NCBI GenBank assembly: GCA_027485695.1
Contig: JAIXQO010000004.1
Coordinates: 110,056-174,055 of the forward strand
Direction of reading: 5' to 3'
DNA: 64,000 bases
Origin: Pseudomonadota bacterium
Lineage (GTDB): Bacteria; Bdellovibrionota; UBA1018
In this document: piece after piece, positions 1 to 64,000 of the stretch
Layout of the letters: each line of letters opens with the position of its first letter
Position numbering within the stretch: position 1 is the stretch's first letter
Notes under the pieces: generated by a model
Databases searched by the model: none
Told to the model about the DNA's origin: nothing
Seen by the model: the letters and a program-made list of their open reading frames with translations, nothing else
Translations under genes and position numbers: made by a program

Positions 1-714
1 TACTTGAACAACGGCGGCCGCGCGATCATCGCCATCGACCTACTCCTCAAGTCCAAAGGCGGCGAGACCTCACCGGAACTCGTCTCCATCCTTAAGGACT
101 GGGGCATCCAAGCGGAGTCCGCGCTGATCATTGATCCGGTTTCGCGCGCGCTGAACTTGGAGCCCACGGTGCCAATCGCACCCACGTTCTCGATGCAGCA
201 TCCGATCACAGCCGATATGTCCGGTAACGTGATCGCACCGCTCTCGCGTCCGCTCACGATCCAGAAAACCCTGCCTCCGAACGTCGCCGTCGAAGCCATT
301 GCATCCACGACTCCAAACGCTTGGGGCGAGCGCGATATGAAATCGCTAGAGTCCGGAACGGTGAAATTCGATTCGAACTCCGACATTCGAGGCCCGATGA
401 CGATCGCCGCCGCCGTTCAGGGTAAAAAAGCAGGCGCCAAAGACGAAACCCGTTTCGTCGTATTTGCGACCTCCTATTTTGCGGCGAACCAGTTCGCTCG
501 TTTTGACAAAAACACCGACTTGTTTGCGAACTCGCTCAGCTGGGTCGTGGGCGACGACAACTTGATTTCCATCCGCCCGAAAGATGCGGGCGGTGGCCTC
601 GTACAGCTCAGCCAGAAAGCAGGTATCGCGATTTTCCTGACGTCTGTCATCGTTGTGCCTCTGCTTTTGGCGATTGCCGGTATCGTGGTCTGGAGACTTC
701 GCAAACGGTTGTAA
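1..714 (+). CDS. GldG-like ABC-transporter auxiliary component, C-terminal part (5' end lies outside window)
   Basis: ORF 4..714 is open to the window start. The product resembles the C-terminus of GldG-family proteins and ends in a hydrophobic membrane anchor (IAIFLTSVIVVPLLLAIAGIVVW) followed by RLRKRL. It is followed by a DUF4340-type gene, as is usual for this family. Confidence 0.55.
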   Translation, partial: YLNNGGRAIIAIDLLLKSKGGETSPELVSILKDWGIQAESALIIDPVSRALNLEPTVPIAPTFSMQHPITADMSGNVIAPLSRPLTIQKTLPPNVAVEAIASTTPNAWGERDMKSLESGTVKFDSNSDIRGPMTIAAAVQGKKAGAKDETRFVVFATSYFAANQFARFDKNTDLFANSLSWVVGDDNLISIRPKDAGGGLVQLSQKAGIAIFLTSVIVVPLLLAIAGIVVWRLRKRL

Positions 715-822
715 AAATAAATCGCCGACGACCGGGCTCCTGCCCTGCTGAAAATCGCGCCGTAGGCGCGACCGCTTCACGCTTTTTCAGACTCGCGGAC
801 GATTTATTTCTTACAACCGTTT
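703..822 (+). repeat. Structured intergenic element, copy 1 (conserved core CCGGGCTCCTGCCCT...TCGCGCC-GTA-GGCGCGA...CGCTTCACGC inside a 22-bp outer stem)
   Basis: Outer arms 703-724 (AAACGGTTGTAAAAATAAATCG) and 800-822 (CGATTTATTTCTTACAACCGTTT) are reverse complements. The core at 732-793 is shared with copies at 62472-62578 and 53817-53931 (reverse orientation). Confidence 0.7.
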
Positions 823-4023: not shown

Positions 4024-4842
4024 ATGAAGCCACAGATGGACAGCCAATTCGAAGGACTGAAATTCCAGCTCTCCGAACTTCCTCACGAATACGGCAAAAA
4101 CGTCCACCTGCTGTCTGATCCTTACCTCCTTTCGCTCCTCGCTCGCCTTTGCTCGCCAGACACTCATCAGCCGGTGATCAACGAACTCGTTCAATCGATT
4201 TATACATCGCTTTTGAACACGGTCGTCGCTCATGAATTCCCCATACAAGTCTCTTCCCGCGATACTCGGATGAAGGCGCATCATCCCGAAGCCGTCTATC
4301 AAGGTCCGATCATCGACTCCAAGACCCCGGTCGTGAGCGTGAACCTCGCTCGCGCAGGGACGTTCCCGTCTCACCTTTGTTATACGGCTCTGAACTATTT
4401 CATGAACCCGGAGACGGTTCGCCAAGATCACATCAGCATCGCACGCCAGACGGATTCAGACTCACAAGTGACTGGAAGCGAAGTCACCGGACACAAGATC
4501 GGCGGACCGATCGACGGCGCGATCGTTTTGTTCCCAGATCCGATGGGCGCAACCGGCAGCACGCTCGTCAAGGCGATCGATTTATTCAAGAAGCGCGGAC
4601 AGGCGTCCAAATTTATCGCCCTCCACTGCATCGTTACGCCCGAGTATTTGGCAGCGGTAAAAAAACATCACCCCGATCTCATCGTTTACGCGGTAAGATT
4701 GGACAGAGGACTCTCGCCTGGCGACGTCCTGAAAACCAAACTCGGAAGCCGTTGGGCCGAAGAGAAAGGCTTGAATTCCCATCAATACATTGTCCCCGGT
4801 GGCGGGGGCTTTGGCGAGGTCATGAATAACGCTTATGTCTGA
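4024..4842 (+). CDS. Uracil phosphoribosyltransferase-like type I PRTase with N-terminal extension
   Basis: PRPP-binding motif VLFPDPMGATGSTLVKAIDL resembles the Upp signature. The protein is 272 aa versus about 210 for canonical Upp. The gene lies 3 nt after tdk and overlaps hpt by 8 nt. Confidence 0.55.
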   Translation: MKPQMDSQFEGLKFQLSELPHEYGKNVHLLSDPYLLSLLARLCSPDTHQPVINELVQSIYTSLLNTVVAHEFPIQVSSRDTRMKAHHPEAVYQGPIIDSKTPVVSVNLARAGTFPSHLCYTALNYFMNPETVRQDHISIARQTDSDSQVTGSEVTGHKIGGPIDGAIVLFPDPMGATGSTLVKAIDLFKKRGQASKFIALHCIVTPEYLAAVKKHHPDLIVYAVRLDRGLSPGDVLKTKLGSRWAEEKGLNSHQYIVPGGGGFGEVMNNAYV

Positions 4843-5374
4843 AACCCAACCGAACGAACCAAAAGTCTTGATTCCAGAAGTCCGCATCCAAGAGCGCATT
4901 CAAGAGCTCGGTCGCGAGATCACCAAAGAATACGCCGGCAAAGAAGTCGTCGCGATCTGCGTGCTCAAGAGCAGCTTCATTTTTTACAGCGATTTGCTCC
5001 GTCAGATCGACCTTCCAGTCAGCTGTGAATTCCTGGGCGTGTCCAGCTACGGTGACCGCCGCGTCTCCTCGGGCGAAGTCAAAGTCACGCTCGACATCAA
5101 CGAGCCGCTCGAAGGCAAACACGTCCTCATCGTCGAAGACATCGTGGATTCCGGTCTGACCCTCGCTTACCTTCAGAACAATCTTCGCGGTCGCAAACCA
5201 GCCAGCCTCAAGACCTGCGCGCTCCTGATGAAACCCGAGAGCATGAAGATGGAAGTCCTCGTCGACTACGTCGGATTCAAAATCGGTTCCGAATTCGTGA
5301 TCGGCTATGGGATGGATTACGCAGGCAAGTACCGCGGTCTACCGTTCATTGGGTATTTTGAGCCGGGGCATTGA
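4835..5374 (+). CDS. hpt: Hypoxanthine-guanine phosphoribosyltransferase
   Basis: Motifs VLIVEDIVDSGLTL and VIGYGMDYAGKYRGLPFIG, and 179 aa length. Confidence 0.9.
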   Translation: MSETQPNEPKVLIPEVRIQERIQELGREITKEYAGKEVVAICVLKSSFIFYSDLLRQIDLPVSCEFLGVSSYGDRRVSSGEVKVTLDINEPLEGKHVLIVEDIVDSGLTLAYLQNNLRGRKPASLKTCALLMKPESMKMEVLVDYVGFKIGSEFVIGYGMDYAGKYRGLPFIGYFEPGH

Positions 5375-5521: not shown

Positions 5522-6079
5522 TTGCCACGGCAATCGTCGATGAGACCACCTTCTGACAAACACCATCCCATTTCTCTGCAAGAAGTCGAAAATCAAATCT
5601 ATCTGATTCGCGGTCAGAAAGTGATGATCGACACTGACCTTGCGAGACTCTACGGAGTCACTACTTTTAACCTCAATAAGGCAGTGAAAAGAAACCGCTT
5701 ACGATTTCCAACAGACTTTATGTTTCAGCTGACAAATCAAGAACTTAGCGACTTGATATTCCAGAATGGAATTGCAAGATCATCCGGCCATGGGGGCCGG
5801 AGATCGCTCCCTTTCGCTTTTACCCAAGAGGGGGTGGCGATGATTTCTAGCGTGCTCAGAAGCGACGAAGCGATTCAGATGAATATCCTGATTATGCGAG
5901 CATTTGTACGCCTCAAAGAAGTCAATATGAGCCACGCTGAATTGAATCGGCGACTGGATTCGCTCGAAGAACGCTACGATCAGCAATTCAGTTCGATCTT
6001 CGAAGCGATTCGAGAGCTCATTTCGGATCGCTCAGTTCCGCGCAAGCGAGTGATCGGACTCGGGAAGAAAAACGTTTAA
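5522..6079 (+). CDS. ORF6N-domain (KilA-N/Bro-N-like) protein, stand-alone phage-derived gene
   Basis: IRGQKVMIDTDLARLYGVTTFNLNKAVKRNRLRFPTDFMFQLTNQE is the classic ORF6N N-terminal module. No integrase or other phage genes lie nearby. Confidence 0.65.
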   Translation: MPRQSSMRPPSDKHHPISLQEVENQIYLIRGQKVMIDTDLARLYGVTTFNLNKAVKRNRLRFPTDFMFQLTNQELSDLIFQNGIARSSGHGGRRSLPFAFTQEGVAMISSVLRSDEAIQMNILIMRAFVRLKEVNMSHAELNRRLDSLEERYDQQFSSIFEAIRELISDRSVPRKRVIGLGKKNV

Positions 6080-7230: not shown

Positions 7231-8082
7231 GTGACGGATGCGCGGTTATTTCCACTTCAGCCGAAACGAGTCCTGGGTCTTGAGCTCGCCGGAGCAAAAA
7301 GCCAAAAAAGCGCTATTTCCGTCCTCGAGTACTACCCAAAAGAGCGCAAAACATTCCTCCTCGACGTCTATGACCGAATCTACGACGAAGACGAGACCTC
7401 GAACGACGCAACCTTAATCGCGACCGTCGATGAGATCATCGAGGCCGATCGCAGGCAATCCGTGACGATGGCGGTGAACGTCGCAACTACGCTCCCTCCT
7501 TGTTTGCCCTGTACCCGTAAAACCTGCCTGACGGTTGAGAAATGCACCGTGCCTGCGGTCAAATGGATGCGCGAGATTTCGAATCGCGAGGGCGACGGCA
7601 AGAATTTCACTCCCTACACACAGCGGCCGATGGAACTTTGGATTCGCCACAAAATTTTCCCGAACATCCCCAAAGAAGCCCGGTTCGAGATCGACGAAGC
7701 ACTCGGCGGCAGCCGTGCCCCACTCACCGCACGGATGATTTTCCTGAAGCCGCATTTCTCGCACCTCAAGCTCATCGAAGCGCTCCCGAAACTGACCATT
7801 GCCGTACTCGCGTCTCAACTACGGATCCCAAAACGCGTGGTCCAGACCTATCGTAAACCCGAACAAGGTCATGACTCCCGAGCTCATATCTTGGATCAGA
7901 TCATTCGCACTCACAGCGTCTTTATTTACGAGCGAGATCAACGTAAACTGACGCAAAGCCTGACTGCGTTCGATTCGTTTCTTTGCGCCTTCACCGCTCT
8001 CTTGAGCGAACAAGGCGCGACGGCGACCGCTCCGCGGGGTTTTCCGAAAAACACGGGTTGGACCGAATACCCGAAATTTTGA
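7231..8082 (+). CDS. Hypothetical protein
   Basis: 283-aa ORF that begins 6 nt after the kinase stop. No confident family assignment. Confidence 0.3.
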   Translation: MTDARLFPLQPKRVLGLELAGAKSQKSAISVLEYYPKERKTFLLDVYDRIYDEDETSNDATLIATVDEIIEADRRQSVTMAVNVATTLPPCLPCTRKTCLTVEKCTVPAVKWMREISNREGDGKNFTPYTQRPMELWIRHKIFPNIPKEARFEIDEALGGSRAPLTARMIFLKPHFSHLKLIEALPKLTIAVLASQLRIPKRVVQTYRKPEQGHDSRAHILDQIIRTHSVFIYERDQRKLTQSLTAFDSFLCAFTALLSEQGATATAPRGFPKNTGWTEYPKF

Positions 8083-12744: not shown

Positions 12745-13161
12745 GTGCCAGCTATGAAAAATCTCTTCGTCGTTTTAGGCAGTTTTTTGGTTTTTAGTAG
12801 TTCATCTCAAGCAATAGATCTCAAAGAATGCGCCAATTTCGACGGCACTGTGAAATTGACGATCAATCAATTCTCAGGTGGCCCAGCCCGCCGCCCTGGA
12901 GATGAACAGCGTAAAACTCAACTTGTTCATCATGATCACCTCGTGAGAGAGGAAATCTCTTATTTTGGAACGACCAATCCACAGATTCAGGGGACCTGCC
13001 AGTTTCAAATCAACCAAGAGGAAACCCTCTCCCAAACGAGAAAATTCGGCGTGTCGACCACAGATTCGTGGATGAAGATTCAATTCTGCCTAAACGACGC
13101 GACCAATCCTGCACAAGAGTTCGTGCTCGTTTGCCGTCATGTCTTTCAGCCTCATCCATAG
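12745..13161 (+). CDS. Small secreted hypothetical protein
   Basis: Signal peptide MKNLFVVLGSFLVFSSSSQA. 138 aa. Confidence 0.35.
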   Translation: MPAMKNLFVVLGSFLVFSSSSQAIDLKECANFDGTVKLTINQFSGGPARRPGDEQRKTQLVHHDHLVREEISYFGTTNPQIQGTCQFQINQEETLSQTRKFGVSTTDSWMKIQFCLNDATNPAQEFVLVCRHVFQPHP

Positions 13162-24043: not shown

Positions 24044-24100
24044 AAGACCCCCTCGGGTTTTGGTAGAGAAATGGAACTGCGTTTACTGCTCATTTACTCA

Positions 24101-24126
24101 TTCGCGACACAGGACCGGAGGTTACA
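24101..24126 (-). promoter_or_regulatory. ECF-type promoter motif TGTAACC-N15-CGAATG driving the spondin-like/sigma/anti-sigma operon
   Basis: Minus strand reads TGTAACCTCCGGTCCTGTGTCGCGAATG, i.e. GTAAC-N16-CGAA, about 58 nt upstream of the ATG at 24043. Confidence 0.45.
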
Positions 24127-24187
24127 AATCTTTTGAAAAGATTCTTTATCGGTCGAATCTGCCCGAAATTCGGGGACTTAGATTTTT

Positions 24188-24213
24188 TGTAACTTTTGCT
24201 GCTCAAGCGCGAA
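24188..24213 (+). promoter_or_regulatory. ECF-type promoter motif TGTAACT-N15-CGAATG driving the bufferin-like operon
   Basis: TGTAACTTTTGCTGCTCAAGCGCGAATG has the same GTAAC-N16-CGAA(TG) architecture as the divergent motif. An AAGGAG Shine-Dalgarno at 24225-24230 sits 10 nt before the ATG. Confidence 0.45.
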
Positions 24214-24240
24214 TGAGCTTTTACAAGGAGTCCTCAGACT

Positions 24241-45762: not shown

Positions 45763-45847
45763 CATTCGCACAGTTTTGCCTGATGAACGAGAGAACGACA
45801 AACGGGAAATCGACCTACGGGAATGGTCCACGCATGGGAATAAAAGA

Positions 45848-46026
45848 GGCCCACGATGGGCCGTAGATAAGATCGGCATGACAGCCGATCTTCACGCGTA
45901 AGCGAAGCGTCGCGCCCGTAGGGCAAGGCCCACGATGGGCCGCAGATAAGATCGGCACGACAGCCGATCTTCACGCGTAAGCGAAGCGTCGCGCCCGTAG
46001 GGCAAGGCCCACGATGGGCCGCAGTA
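45848..46026. repeat. 79-bp tandem repeat, 2.3 copies, each unit built of four short hairpins
   Basis: Units start at 45848, 45927 and 46006 (GGCCCACGATGGGCC...). Two SNPs separate units 1 and 2. Units contain GGCCCA-CGA-TGGGCC, GATCGGC-ATGACA-GCCGATC and GCCC-GTA-GGGC hairpins. Confidence 0.85.
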
Positions 46027-53074: not shown

Positions 53075-53734
53075 ATGAGCGAAACCCTGCCCGCCCAACG
53101 AAAATTCTGCTACCGCTGCCGGCGCGCCGGAGAGGGCTGCTACTGCACGGATATCCAGACCTTTAGGCCGCCTTTTGACCTTTTTCTCATTGTCCACCCC
53201 CGGGAATCGCGCAACCTCGTGGGTAGCGTCCGAATCGCCCACTTGAGCTGCGAGCACTCCACCTGGGTCGAGGGAATCGGCGAAGACATCGATCGCTCCC
53301 CCATTGTCCTCGGTGCTCTATCGAATCCGAAACTCGCGCCGATGATCCTCTACCCCTCACCGCATGCAGTTCCCTTGGACCGAATGACCGCCCAGAACGT
53401 ACCGAACGATCGACGTCTTGCTCTTTTTGTCATCGATGGAACCTGGTATCAGGCGAAACAACTCATTCGCCGTAGCCTCATCTTATCAACCCTGCCTTCG
53501 GTGTCGTTTACGACGGATCGCGTTTCTGAATACGGTTTTCGCAAGCAACCGCACGATTATTGCCTCTCGACCGTCGAAGCCGTGCATGTTGCCATCGACG
53601 CCTACCTTCGTAGTCCAGTCGCTCCCCCCATGGAAGCGCGCCCGCACGACCGAATGATGGATATTTTCCGAAAAATGGTGCGAACTCAGCTGGCGTTTAA
53701 CAGCCAGCCGCGCTCATTGCGTAATCCCATTTGA
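53075..53734 (+). CDS. DTW-domain tRNA-uridine aminocarboxypropyltransferase (TapT-like)
   Basis: N-terminal Cys cluster CYRCRRAGEGCYC and the DGTW motif (FVIDGTWYQAK). Confidence 0.65.
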   Translation: MSETLPAQRKFCYRCRRAGEGCYCTDIQTFRPPFDLFLIVHPRESRNLVGSVRIAHLSCEHSTWVEGIGEDIDRSPIVLGALSNPKLAPMILYPSPHAVPLDRMTAQNVPNDRRLALFVIDGTWYQAKQLIRRSLILSTLPSVSFTTDRVSEYGFRKQPHDYCLSTVEAVHVAIDAYLRSPVAPPMEARPHDRMMDIFRKMVRTQLAFNSQPRSLRNPI

Positions 53735-53816
53735 AGCGGTAGCCTATTGAGAGCCCATGAAACTACGACTCTCGGTTTCAAACATTCTGTTTTACTCCCA
53801 GTCCTTCTGTTGCTTC

Positions 53817-53931
53817 GGCAATCGCTCGCAGTTGACTCTCGACTTCGAGTCAAGCGTGAAGCGTTCGCGCCTTTGGCGCGATGACTCGGAGGGCAGGAGC
53901 CCGGCAAGAGAGTCAACTGCGAGTGATTGCC
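53817..53931 (-). repeat. Structured intergenic element, copy 3 (reverse orientation) abutting the start codon of the downstream gene
   Basis: Reverse complement contains CTTGCCGGGCTCCTGCCCT...TCGCGCC-AAA-GGCGCGA-A-CGCTTCACGC. The 24-bp outer stem 53817-53840 / 53908-53931 is perfect on plus-strand RNA with one G-U pair. Confidence 0.7.
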
Positions 53932-53932
53932 G

Positions 53933-54829
53933 ATGAAAGAGAAACTCACGCTCGTCCTTTTCAAGGATCACCAAAACGCCAGAACGTTCGAGCTCCCGCT
54001 CGAGCGGATTGAGCGCACGGGCATCCTCTATGTTCTCGTTATTTTCCTCGCCTTACTCTCGTCGGCATTCATGGTGAGAAGCGCCTATCGAATGTTGAGC
54101 TCTCGAGACGAAGGCTCCATCGACAAAGTCCGCTCCCTGACCCAAGAACTCGCCGAAGTCCGCGCCTCTTATCAAGCTCTTCAGGCACATTTATCCGGAC
54201 AACCGGCATCGAGTCTCACGCCGACTTCGATGAGGAGCATCCTGTTTACTTCGATTCCTACCCAATCCCTGCAATCGCCGCTGCCGTCGCGCGAGAGTCT
54301 ATCGTTTCGCTTGGAGCCGGTGAATTTCCGCTGGCAGGGGAATTTCTTGCAGATCAGCACCGCGATCGAATACCGCAAAGGCGACGACGGCAACCAGCAA
54401 GGAAACTTCGTGATCCTCGCGCAAGGCCCTCAGAATCTCTATGCGCATCCCGAGGGCGCGTTCTCGGATGCCGGGCAAGAAGTCCTCATGGAACCTGAAT
54501 CGGGCGAATATTTTTCGGTCAGTCGCTACCGAGAAATTCGCGCGCGCTTCGGTCCGGTTGAACGCCACGATCAAATCCAAAGCATCCAGGTTTACATCTT
54601 CGACAAGAACAAGAACCTGATTTACTTCGACCGCGTCTCGCTCACCGACGCCGAAAAAGACGCCGGCGCATCGACTGCTCCCGCACCCACGAGTACGACC
54701 GCTCCAAAGCGTCGCGCGGCACCGAAGCCTGCCCCCGAAGAGGAATCCTCAGACGCGTCTGAGGCAACCGCAACTCCAGCCAAGGAAACGACCCATGAAA
54801 CAGGAAGCGATTCGGGAAACAACGAGTAG
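53933..54829 (+). CDS. Membrane-anchored hypothetical protein with Pro/Ala/Thr-rich C-terminus
   Basis: The track ORF begins at TTG 53927. The ATG at 53933 (MKEKLTLVLF...) is preferred. One TM helix (ILYVLVIFLALLSSAFMV). Confidence 0.35.
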   Translation: MKEKLTLVLFKDHQNARTFELPLERIERTGILYVLVIFLALLSSAFMVRSAYRMLSSRDEGSIDKVRSLTQELAEVRASYQALQAHLSGQPASSLTPTSMRSILFTSIPTQSLQSPLPSRESLSFRLEPVNFRWQGNFLQISTAIEYRKGDDGNQQGNFVILAQGPQNLYAHPEGAFSDAGQEVLMEPESGEYFSVSRYREIRARFGPVERHDQIQSIQVYIFDKNKNLIYFDRVSLTDAEKDAGASTAPAPTSTTAPKRRAAPKPAPEEESSDASEATATPAKETTHETGSDSGNNE

Positions 54830-61913: not shown

Positions 61914-62468
61914 ATGAAAACCGCAATCGCTCTGTCCCTCTTGTCTGCAATCACCGTATATTCCGCTTCAGCCGCATCGATCGAAGGATGCTACACGACC
62001 GACGACAGCCAGATCCCGCTGATCTATATCCAGAAAAACTCCGTCTCTTACAAACTCTCGACGGAACTCGTTTCCCCGACCACCCGTTACAACGGCAGAA
62101 CCGGTGACCCATACACCACCTATGACGGAAAAAAGGAAATCGTATCGACGGTTTTCGAAGCCTCCGCTTCTCCTGAAGCAACGACCTTTACCTACATCCC
62201 GATGTCACGAGACCCAGACGTGAAAGTTGCCAAAGGTTACAAAGTTGCTTCAGCGGTCACAAATGATCGTACGGCCGCCGCTAAGATCTCTTCCAAGATT
62301 TTTGTCGCATTCAACCCACTGAACTCCCGCCCAATTGTCGAAGTTCAGGCGAAGATCCAAGAACCTCGCAAATTTAACCAGTTCCTCCTCTGGAGCTCCA
62401 AACGCACGATCGAAACGACGATCGCCAAGAAGCTCTCGAACTCCGTTTGCGAGCGCGCTGGACTCTAA
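61914..62468 (+). CDS. Secreted hypothetical protein
   Basis: Signal peptide MKTAIALSLLSAITVYSASA. Confidence 0.35.
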   Translation: MKTAIALSLLSAITVYSASAASIEGCYTTDDSQIPLIYIQKNSVSYKLSTELVSPTTRYNGRTGDPYTTYDGKKEIVSTVFEASASPEATTFTYIPMSRDPDVKVAKGYKVASAVTNDRTAAAKISSKIFVAFNPLNSRPIVEVQAKIQEPRKFNQFLLWSSKRTIETTIAKKLSNSVCERAGL

Positions 62469-62471
62469 GGC

Positions 62472-62578
62472 GGTTTTTAAAAGGGTTTGCTTGCCGGGCT
62501 CCTGCCCTACTGAAAATCGCGTCTATTAGACGCGAGCGCTTCACGCTTTTTCAGACGCGCAAAGCCCTTTTAAAAACC
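62472..62578 (+). repeat. Structured intergenic element, copy 2
   Basis: Outer arms GGTTTTTAAAAGGGTTTGC / GCAAAGCCCTTTTAAAAACC. Core TTGCCGGGCTCCTGCCCT-ACTGAAAA-TCGCGTC-TATTA-GACGCGA-G-CGCTTCACGC-TTTTTCAGAC. Confidence 0.7.
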
Positions 62579-62597
62579 TAATGCAGTTAAAAACAAA

Positions 62598-62635
62598 AGA
62601 GGCCTCTCGGAATCCGAGGAGGCCTCTTTAATTTT
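62598..62635. terminator. Bidirectional rho-independent terminator between convergent genes
   Basis: AGAGGCCTC-(TCGGAATCCGAG)-GAGGCCTCT, flanked by an A-run on the 5' side and TTTAATTTT on the 3' side. Confidence 0.6.
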
Positions 62636-62655
62636 CTAAATCGACAGCTTGCCTA

Positions 62656-64000
62656 CTAAAATTTCACACCGACACGGGCTTGGAAACCCATCATCGCGCT
62701 TGTTGCATTGTTCGGCTTCGTCGCATCGTTCGAGAACGCGTAGTAGTTGCCTGGCTTATAGTAAGCGAGGTCAACACCGAAGCTCGTGAAGTCGTCCCAA
62801 TCAAAGTTCGTCGTCAGGTCGAGTTCGGTTCCGAGCGAAGAGCTCTGGCTACCGTTTGCCGTATAATAACGACGATCCCAGGTATTAAAGAACGACTGGC
62901 CGTTAGCTGCGGTCTTGTCAGCCGATGCCGTCATCAACGTCAAACCGAACGTCCATTTGTCCGTGCGGAACGCGCCACCCAGGCTCGCGTAGTTGGCATT
63001 CGTAATCGGGTTGTCATAGACCGAACGAACTTCACCACCGGCTGGATTGTTCGGATTGTTGTTACCTGCGAAGTTCCGAGGCTGCATGCCGAACATCAGC
63101 ATACCCAGACGGTAGTTCGGATGAAGGTAAGCCATCGTCCATTTCTGGGTGTTCCCGCCAGGGGCGTTTGGTTGGCCCGGAACCTTGCCCGCGCGAAGCA
63201 TGACGCTCCAAGCGTCATTGAACGAATATTTCGCTTCACCGGCGAGCGCGTAAGTTTTGTAAGGAATACCGATGATGCGTCCATTGAAGATCGGCGCTTC
63301 GACCGCGAAATCGAATTTCCCGGCGCGCTTCTTCATATAGATGTCCCAGATCGTGTAGTTCACACTGCCTGGAGTGGAGGCGTTCAAGAACGTCGCCGTG
63401 TTCTGTGCGCCACCGATCCGGCGAATGAAATTGAATCCAGCATCAAAATCTTCATCCGGATTGAAATAACGAAGACCGAGCGAGTATTCATTGAGCGTCG
63501 ATCCACCGAATGGGCTCGTCGTACATGGATTGCCGTTACACGTGCCGCCCACCGAATTTCCATAAGCATATTTCGTAGAGGCTGGAATGACCGAGAAATT
63601 TCCGAACTTGGAAGTCAATCGGATCACGTCTCCTGTCGACTGATAGCGATCCCAGAGGCCATCACCGGAGTGATGTACGAGGCCCAAGCCCCAATGAATC
63701 GGAGCGCGACCCACTTGGAGCAAACCGAAATCCGTCACTACATCCGCCCAAAAACGTTGCGCCGTCACGGTGCTTCCGCCCGAGTAAGAGGTGCTGAAGA
63801 AACGTTGATCGCTTCGGGTCGTTGCGGGGAATCCGTCGCCGTAGAATCCAGTGATCGGGTTACCGAACCAGATTTCCGATTTGATCGAAACGTTGTCGTT
63901 TACGATGACGTTTGGTTTCAAGCGGAGGAACAGCGATTGAAAACTCGCCGTCTTACTGCCTGCGCTGGGAATGTAATAGCCGCCAGCGCTCTCGCGGCTT
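62656..64000 (-). CDS. Outer-membrane beta-barrel (porin-like) protein, N-terminus beyond window end
   Basis: The frame stays open to the window end, so the TTG at 63921 is not the real start. The C-terminus ...FQARVGVKF ends in an aromatic residue. Gly/Asn/Tyr/Thr-rich. Confidence 0.5.
   Translation of the reverse strand, partial: SRESAGGYYIPSAGSKTASFQSLFLRLKPNVIVNDNVSIKSEIWFGNPITGFYGDGFPATTRSDQRFFSTSYSGGSTVTAQRFWADVVTDFGLLQVGRAPIHWGLGLVHHSGDGLWDRYQSTGDVIRLTSKFGNFSVIPASTKYAYGNSVGGTCNGNPCTTSPFGGSTLNEYSLGLRYFNPDEDFDAGFNFIRRIGGAQNTATFLNASTPGSVNYTIWDIYMKKRAGKFDFAVEAPIFNGRIIGIPYKTYALAGEAKYSFNDAWSVMLRAGKVPGQPNAPGGNTQKWTMAYLHPNYRLGMLMFGMQPRNFAGNNNPNNPAGGEVRSVYDNPITNANYASLGGAFRTDKWTFGLTLMTASADKTAANGQSFFNTWDRRYYTANGSQSSSLGTELDLTTNFDWDDFTSFGVDLAYYKPGNYYAFSNDATKPNNATSAMMGFQARVGVKF

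Follow-up and report, generated by a model that had tools for sequence, protein, structure and literature searches.

An uncatalogued palindromic repeat family of Bdellovibrionota whose arms are probably copied in part from flanking DNA

The inverted repeat between tapT and the gene starting at position 53933 is best read as one member of a small, non-coding, palindromic repeat family, previously uncatalogued and restricted to Bdellovibrionota, and as a selfish element acting at the DNA level in which fold-back template switching both makes the arms and keeps them in repair; this joint reading is held with moderate confidence. About 30 copies were found, every one in a Bdellovibrionota genome, and three of them lie in the window, meaning here the whole 64,000-nt stretch of DNA that was analysed: copy 1 (~703–822) and copy 2 (62472–62578) on the plus strand, and copy 3, beside tapT, on the minus strand (Table 1).

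The repeat family and its core

One genome from each of 185,579 species was scanned with an exact pattern of the two conserved core words. The scan returned 53 matches, 22 of which have the full architecture, all in MAGs of Bdellovibrionales, Pseudobdellovibrionaceae or Bacteriovoracaceae; the matches lacking that architecture are isolated chance matches. Metagenome contigs contributed four true copies with arms of 16–42 bp, compared with arms of at most 7 bp in 52 of 52 chance matches, and the scan of viral contigs for the core found no copies. The window has no match to Rfam 15 at the gathering threshold, and a permissive search gave at best a sub-threshold match to a generic miRNA-precursor hairpin (31 bits, where 85 are required). 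When 20 loci were searched, Rfam recognized tRNA, SRP RNA and c-di-GMP-I alone, and no family for the element. No description was found in the literature of this family in Bdellovibrio, nor of elements with one-sided inverted flank duplication.

The family core, of ~65 nt, forms a three-way junction between near-perfect inverted repeats that are specific to each locus. Read in the family orientation, the order is the 5' arm, a junction of 2–7 nt ending in C, hairpin A, the 5' strand of stem B, hairpin C bracketed by T and A, the motif ACGCTTCACGCTT, the 3' strand of stem B, and the 3' arm. Hairpin A (GGGC-TCCT-GCCC) is invariant apart from divergent copies, in two of which its stem covaries (AGC/GCT, GGC/GCC) with the TCCT loop kept. 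Stem B comprises 7–9 covarying base pairs and usually carries a G.A mismatch, hairpin C is a covarying perfect palindrome of free sequence with a loop of 3–4 nt, and ACGCTTCACGCTT is an unpaired direct repeat, CGCTT-CA-CGCTT. Among 25 copies, 89.8% of cells in the core are paired, compared with 61.7% after shuffling and ~45% in slid controls; 24 of 28 core pairs have changed on both sides, G-U pairs are nearly absent from stem B and hairpin C, and RNAalifold independently gives the same core fold. The loops of hairpin C are T-rich on the family strand (TTC in 8 of 31, TTT in 4 of 31). An assignment of hairpin C as a UUCG tetraloop was rejected, since these loops are triloops of perfect odd palindromes and are not diagnostic of RNA. 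Covariance model R1 detects only the three copies in the window, at 67–74 bits with E ~1e-15, the next match scoring 16 bits, and on the fetched loci it recovers additional, more divergent copies. Two other local inverted repeats of the window, at 24097–24217 and 12790–12917, are unrelated.

Copy 3 matches model R1 on the minus strand and has arms of 24–36 bp. Its outer arms, GGCAATCGCTCGCAGTTGACTCTC (53817–53840) and GAGAGTCAACTGCGAGTGATTGCC (53908–53931), pair over 24 bp with a single G-U on the plus strand, which corresponds to a C-A on the minus strand, and the 24-mer arm and its partner are the sole two matches across 64 kb, where none is expected. The inverted repeat extends to 36 nt (53805–53840 with 53908–53943, 89% complementary), and the extended stem reaches 11 nt inside the downstream coding sequence, start codon included. 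The inner hairpins are TCGAGTCA/TGACTCGG and TCGCGCC-TTT-GGCGCGA. As RNA, the plus strand folds at −77.0 kcal/mol (z = −9.8, reached in 0 of 200 shuffles) and the minus strand at −71.1 kcal/mol (z = −9.5); the extended copy folds as single-stranded DNA at −47.6 kcal/mol (z = −9.7). A sequence-only reading had described most of this, and on recheck its letters and coordinates (53817–53931), its 24-bp stem with one G-U, its two smaller enclosed hairpins, and its structured repeat family with a core common to copies 1–3 and inverted in copy 3 all agree with the present results, the amendment being that the repeat is longer than the stem it described. It also placed the end of the 3' arm 1 nt before ATG 53933, which is the true start, with an N-terminus identical in two orthologues.

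The sequence of stem B in copy 3 (TGACTC/GAGTCA) recurs in the innermost stretch of the outer arms, TTGACTCTC/GAGAGTCAA (53833–53840/53908–53915). Other pairings are possible as a result, and the recurrence suggests that one of the two, stem B or the arm, was rewritten from the other.

The empty site at copy 3 and the behavior of the arms

Two relatives reached through a TapT homologue search lack the element. In L114, whose flanks are 89–92% identical in nucleotide sequence, the tapT stop codon is followed by a 21-nt spacer, AGCGGTAGCCTAGTATTGCCG, and the ATG; in L054, a distant relative with 62–76% amino-acid identity, tapT and the next gene overlap by ATGA. The covariance model finds no element in either. 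The empty site in a relative of ~90% identity indicates that copy 3 is a lineage-specific insertion of ~176 nt, which on the plus strand consists of a 55-nt filler, an inverted copy of ATTGCCGATGAAAGAGAA with three mismatches, and the core between two 18-bp terminal repeats. The 24-bp stem is, as judged from these alignments, composite, its inner ~18 bp having been carried by the element and its outer part consisting of the native leader and start codon together with their inverted copy. In the family orientation this inverted flank copy is found 3' of the core, and comparison of the filled and empty alleles confirms directly that the 5' side is native at copy 3. No direct target duplication is present at the junction. 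Insertion into a pre-existing hairpin was rejected because the L114 target contains no palindrome.

For the 55-nt filler, no match was found within the window or among ~110 loci. Within it lies a relic-like ATGAAACTACGACTCTCGGTTTCAA, which bears a weak resemblance to the 5' end of the gene downstream (p ~0.02, not significant after correction for six comparisons). The tapT stop lies ~12 codons earlier in the window (53732–53760) and in L114 than in L054 (540–575); since the earlier end is also present in L114, translational coupling of the L054 type was lost before the element inserted.

Table 1. Positions of the three family copies in the window and of the parts of copy 3 (5' and 3' arms named in the family orientation)
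Feature	Position	Strand	Basis
Family copy 1; 5' arm includes the last 12 nt and stop codon of the upstream gene	703..822	+	Covariance model; same locus in L111, L112
Family copy 2; begins 3 nt past the upstream stop codon, followed by a terminator hairpin	62472..62578	+	Covariance model; orthologous locus in L115 rearranged
Lineage-specific insertion, ~176–179 nt relative to the L114 empty site	53747..53925	-	Alignment with L114 sequence; covariance model finds no element in L114/L054
55-nt filler, arrived with the insertion	53749..53803	.	Absent from L114
Outer 3' arm: inverted copy of native flank ATTGCCGATGAAAGAGAA, 3 mismatches	53805..53822	-	Inverted-repeat extension; empty allele has the native partner without this copy
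Inner 18 bp of 3' arm, terminal inverted repeat brought by the element	53823..53840	-	Sequence, arm matches, L114 alignment
Conserved core, family orientation on the minus strand	53841..53907	-	Covariance model 70.6 bits, E = 5.5e-16; covariation
Core junctions, copy 3	53841–53844 and 53903–53907	-	
Stem B, copy 3	53845–53852 with 53882–53889	-	
CGCTT-CA-CGCTT motif (read on the minus strand), copy 3	53853–53864	-	
Hairpin C, copy 3	53865–53881	-	
Hairpin A, GGGC-TCCT-GCCC (minus strand), copy 3	53891–53902	-	
Inner 18 bp of 5' arm, terminal inverted repeat brought by the element	53908..53925	-	Sequence, arm matches, L114 alignment
Native flank serving as outer 5' arm: ATTGCCG, ATG and first codons	53926..53943	-	Unchanged in the empty-site relative

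Across the family the arms are 10–88 bp long, with a median of ~32 bp, and ~95% paired, the 88-bp arm of L040 containing a single mismatch. They are unique at each of ~27 loci, the common part being confined to 3–18 bp beside the core within subgroups. Two copies in one MAG (L003 and L052) are identical over the core and 13 bp of arm and diverge beyond that, from which the transferable unit appears to be the core with a short terminal repeat. The outer arm ends have no common motif, and direct target duplication is not detected, the longest common outer-flank word averaging 4.6 nt compared with 4.5 nt in mismatched controls.

Overlap between an arm and a gene or tRNA was seen in seven cases, and in all seven the arm concerned is, in the family orientation, the 5' one. 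This arm covers the 3' ends of tRNA-Ser at L022 (7 nt), tRNA-Arg at L025 (3 nt) and tRNA-Arg at L039 (20 nt), takes in the end of the upstream coding sequence at copy 1 and the start codon at copy 3, and overlaps or abuts stop codons at L031 and L034; four of the seven overlaps are substantial and three are marginal, at 1–4 nt only. Because the arm lying on a functional feature is always the 5' one, the 3' arm has to be the derived, inverted copy. Four of ~27 copies abut a tRNA gene, all of them co-oriented with it: L022 at 2836–2925 (Ser), L025 at 5024–5100 (Arg), L039 at 7350–7426 (Arg) and L040 at 229–313 (Leu); in three of the four, the arm holds an inverted tRNA 3' end including CCA.

Over 845 bp of arm in 25 copies there are 15 G-U, 11 A-C and 12 transversion-type mismatches, with no preference for either strand. 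The proposal that the G-U of copy 3 favors the plus strand therefore fails when extended to the family. The unbiased G-U and A-C mismatches and core stems nearly free of G-U are consistent with recopying of the arms rather than with selection on one RNA strand.

The orthologues of copy 1 allow arm changes to be followed over a short divergence, in two relatives whose flanking protein is 92% (L111) and 82% (L112) identical. The coding arm reads CGGTTG, CGACTC and CGTTTG in the three genomes, all encoding R-L, matched on the other side by CAACCG, GAGTCG and CAAACG; two of the genomes have AAA/TTT in stem B where the third has TCC/GGA, and G-C to A-T exchanges occur in hairpin C. Compared with L111 and L112, nine pairs have changed on both sides and three on one side, 97.9% of cells remain paired, and the three orthologues fold at −53 to −56 kcal/mol. 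Identity at the locus is 74–85% in the element, 51–62% in the adjacent spacer and 79–90% in the coding flanks. Template switching between the arms of an inverted repeat homogenizes and extends them and makes perfect hairpins (PMC8794818, PMC8604942, PMC13100816); the mirrored multi-nucleotide or indel arm differences, with few one-sided ones, by which it is recognized are found among the copy 1 orthologues. Changes that are mirrored, clustered and partly transversional over such a short divergence carry the signature of recopying of one arm from the other, and stepwise compensation through wobble intermediates would not yield this pattern.

Rearrangement is evident at copy 2. In L115, an 82% relative in which positions 4555–4834 correspond to the window spacer 62468–62656, the element is reversed and lies beside the convergent gene, a solitary remnant of the 5' arm and hairpin A, separated from the element by the terminator hairpin, persists past the upstream stop codon, and stem B is interrupted by a different small repeat. 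This arrangement looks like an inversion with partial inverted duplication. The terminator in question is an ordinary bidirectional terminator-like hairpin (AAAAGAGGCCTC...GAGGCCTCTTT, 62590–62635) directly after copy 2 and is kept in L115, so that normal terminators occur alongside the element as separate structures. The interruption of the L115 stem B is a sequence of ~70 nt related to a repeat found elsewhere in the window, at 45847–46024, between an HI0933-like flavoprotein gene and a small ORF. That repeat consists of 2.3 tandem copies of a 79-nt unit of hairpins with GTAG beside the stems (GTAGATAAGATCGGC...GCCGATCTT; CCCGTAGGGCAAGGCCCACGATGGGCC) and looks like a GTAG-tagged repeat of REP/BIME type.

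Partial copies immediately precede full ones at L043 (330–680, a tandem array with a period of ~97 nt), L004 (~1249–1305) and L021 (~4600–4640); they consist only of the end of the 5' arm and hairpin A, in some cases with stem B and hairpin C as well. Two c-di-GMP-I aptamers (L028, 3733–3814; L037, 2048–2128) lie 100–160 nt from family copies, beside an MltD-like SLT/LysM gene; in the riboswitch-mltD spacers of these two loci, which are apparently orthologous, the elements are of different subtype and in opposite orientation. At L050 and L037, which have two copies each, the DNA between the copies holds no more than an ion-channel gene, a hypothetical gene, or a non-coding stretch with a c-di-GMP-I aptamer.

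Explanations for the element and its effect on neighboring genes

All copies are intergenic and occur in convergent, divergent and tandem spacers, with convergent spacers over-represented. In the family orientation ~17 of 26 lie downstream of a gene, tRNA or riboswitch on the same strand, commonly no more than 13 nt past its end, and ~9 copies face the start of a gene on the opposite strand. The genes beside the element at 10 loci are ordinary housekeeping genes with no relation to one another, and those scanned in the window are likewise ordinary. Among 20 flanking ORFs from these loci and 30 of the 62 window ORFs there is no reverse transcriptase, transposase or integrase; the sole mobile-element-flavored protein among the 30 is an ORF with an ORF6N (phage antirepressor-type) domain at 5522–6076.

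According to the explanation judged best, and given moderate confidence at the outset, the core with a short terminal inverted repeat inserted into the 21-nt spacer between tapT and the downstream gene after the split from the L114 lineage. DNA 5' of the core has been copied in inverted form to its 3' side, at least for the outer arms, and the two arms thereafter evolve in concert. The hairpin core would seed the fold-back synthesis through intramolecular template switching, a step that we infer, and the process would operate on DNA without selection for the RNA of one strand; the conserved unpaired motifs would most likely be the recognition site of a putative trans-acting protein. Several observations weigh against this explanation. 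An exact 12-mer and an exact 9-mer are kept in the core across Bdellovibrionota families and the fold of copy 1 is kept over at least 20% flank divergence, conservation that looks like purifying selection and could reflect a host function. A gene for the trans-acting partner was not found among the ORFs examined, and the filler has no source in the sequences searched. The T-rich loops of hairpin C, the predominance of co-oriented copies and the co-orientation of all four tRNA-adjacent copies hint at a role at the RNA level. Furthermore, loci in opposite orientation (L115 compared with copy 2, and L028 compared with L037) show cores to be capable of inversion or re-insertion, which could blur the polarity.

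It is suggested more tentatively that the family represents a new form of mobile DNA, in which the core would be the single-stranded recognition and nicking site of a putative enzyme and would spread by snap-back synthesis: once it had been copied beside a free 3' end, the new strand would fold back on it and copy the 5' flank in reverse. If so, each insertion would from the outset have its own hairpin, fashioned from the DNA around it, and one-sided inverted flank duplication without direct duplication would be a transposition signature undescribed for bacterial elements.

Another explanation, considered rather unlikely, is that the family strand specifies a functional structured RNA, a three-way junction that binds a protein or ligand and that upstream transcripts (mRNA, tRNA or riboswitch RNA) carry at their 3' ends, with the long stem as a double-stranded handle, such as an RNase III site or a barrier to 3' exonucleases, and perhaps spread even by reverse transcription with snap-back. 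The strong covariation and conserved unpaired nucleotides of the core, the persistence of the structure at the orthologous copy 1 locus, the T-rich triloops on the family strand, and the placement of ~17 of 26 copies just 3' of a co-oriented gene, three abutting tRNA 3' ends and one following a c-di-GMP-I aptamer, all speak for such an RNA. However, wobble pairs are not tolerated on either strand, ~9 copies including copy 3 are antisense to their neighbors, the conserved part cannot accommodate a promoter, nor was one detected around copy 3 (53500–54200), Rfam contains no relative, no reverse transcriptase gene was found nearby among the 20 flanking and 30 window ORFs, and mirrored multi-base and indel changes are hard to obtain from selected point mutations.

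That the family consists of transposase-mobilized MITEs or REP/RAYT-like elements targeting the loops of pre-existing hairpins such as terminators, with arms that are simply target DNA, is judged improbable. The small size, non-coding nature, multiple copies and enrichment in convergent spacers fit this account, as do the two copies in one MAG (L003, L052) with a common core and 13-bp terminal inverted repeat and the presence in the same genome of GTAG-tagged REP-like repeats. Against it, the copy 3 empty site has no palindrome, the arms hold inverted tRNA 3' ends and ends of coding sequences and reach 88 bp with one mismatch, there is no target-site duplication, and no transposase was found at any locus examined.

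The sequence-only reading also held that the stem occludes the ribosome-binding region of the 53933 gene, could terminate read-through from tapT, and may act as an attenuator. In read-through transcripts the copy 3 stem, which spans −26 to +11 relative to the start codon, probably does occlude it: the computed energy for opening −18 to +12 around ATG 53933 is 34.5 kcal/mol, compared with 9.7 kcal/mol in the L114 empty allele. The first claim thus survives as strong computed sequestration and falls as regulatory design, since the site is empty in L114 and L054 and any effect on the gene is accordingly a consequence of insertion rather than inherited regulation. The 53933 gene differs from its L114 orthologue at 32 synonymous and 4 nonsynonymous codons, with 153 of 157 residues identical, and this purifying selection since the split means that the gene is still expressed. 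Burial of the start codon is most likely a by-product of insertion rather than evolved regulation. Termination is contradicted by the lack of a U-tract after the stem, where the 3' arm is followed by GATGAAAGAG, and by 53500–54200 containing no terminator-like site on either strand, nor any promoter-like site. An evolved translational or transcriptional attenuator coupling tapT read-through to expression of the 53933 gene is the least probable explanation of all, because its favorable points (the position of the stem, the opening energy and the very stable fold) are met by the missing terminator signature, the absence of the element from two relatives in which the gene follows tapT by 21 nt or overlaps it by ATGA, the same element elsewhere in unrelated contexts with no position or orientation fixed across the family, no evident alternative (anti-)structure or sensor, and a gene that remains under purifying selection.

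If the preferred explanation, insertion followed by fold-back copying of the arms, is right, the usual rule for repeats of conserved ends and a free centre is reversed, and the element is manufactured in part from adjoining host DNA with a fixed polarity. The filled, empty and orthologous alleles in public data would then provide a natural system for the origin and upkeep of long perfect hairpins in bacteria, and a concrete case in which apparent compensatory evolution arises from copying, not from RNA selection. For annotation, it would warn that such hairpins beside start codons or tRNA ends in Bdellovibrionota are insertions and not riboregulators, and it points to a putative protein that reads a strongly conserved single-stranded motif.

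Comparison with known systems

Intrinsic terminators and attenuators are not matched, there being no U-tract and a mixed orientation across copies, and no Rfam 15 family matches at the gathering threshold. Retron msr-msd units resemble the element in that inverted repeats specific to the locus (a1/a2) enclose a structured non-coding unit; however, a retron is a single locus with an adjacent reverse transcriptase, whereas the element occurs as many dispersed copies, and no reverse transcriptase domain is present among the ORFs flanking 10 loci or among 30 ORFs of the window. Integron attC sites likewise conserve structure while leaving the stem sequence free and act as a folded single strand. 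They have conserved R''/R' boxes at the base of the stem, a variable centre, and cassette arrays beside IntI, whereas here the centre is conserved and the base is free, the outer arm ends have no common motif, and the neighbors are housekeeping genes.

Template-switch (quasipalindrome) mutagenesis (PMC8794818, PMC8604942, PMC13100816) accounts for perfect arms, mirrored multi-nucleotide and indel changes, arm extension and occasional inversion of the spacer, each of which is observed in this family. It is, however, a general mutational process, which leaves the conserved dispersed core and the one-sided polarity unaccounted for.

MITEs such as Correia/NEMIS, ERIC/IRU, RUP and Nezha are of the same non-autonomous size class, form long RNA or DNA hairpins from terminal inverted repeats, and alter expression when inserted beside start codons. 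Their ends are the same in all copies and are accompanied by a direct target duplication. In the present family, by contrast, copies have only the innermost few to 18 bp in common, the remainder of each arm being one flank copied in inverted orientation; the arms are unique at each of ~27 loci, and target-site duplication is absent both from the family-wide comparison (4.6 nt against 4.5 nt in controls) and from the copy 3 junction.

REP/REPIN elements, mobilized by RAYT (Y1 HUH) transposases, are also short non-coding intergenic hairpin repeats that number in the tens and are frequently located at gene 3' ends; they are thought to be recognized as folded single-stranded DNA and can have incidental effects on mRNA stability or translation. 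A REP is a conserved imperfect palindrome of 20–40 bp, tagged at one end with GTAG or CGTC (PMC3733652). In the present family the stems are locus-specific and it is the branched centre that is conserved, no tag is common to the aligned copies, and no RAYT gene was seen among the sampled ORFs (20 flanking, 30 window). The element is of the broad kind of small non-autonomous palindromic intergenic repeats to which REP/REPIN and MITEs belong, and it departs from the features that define either of them.
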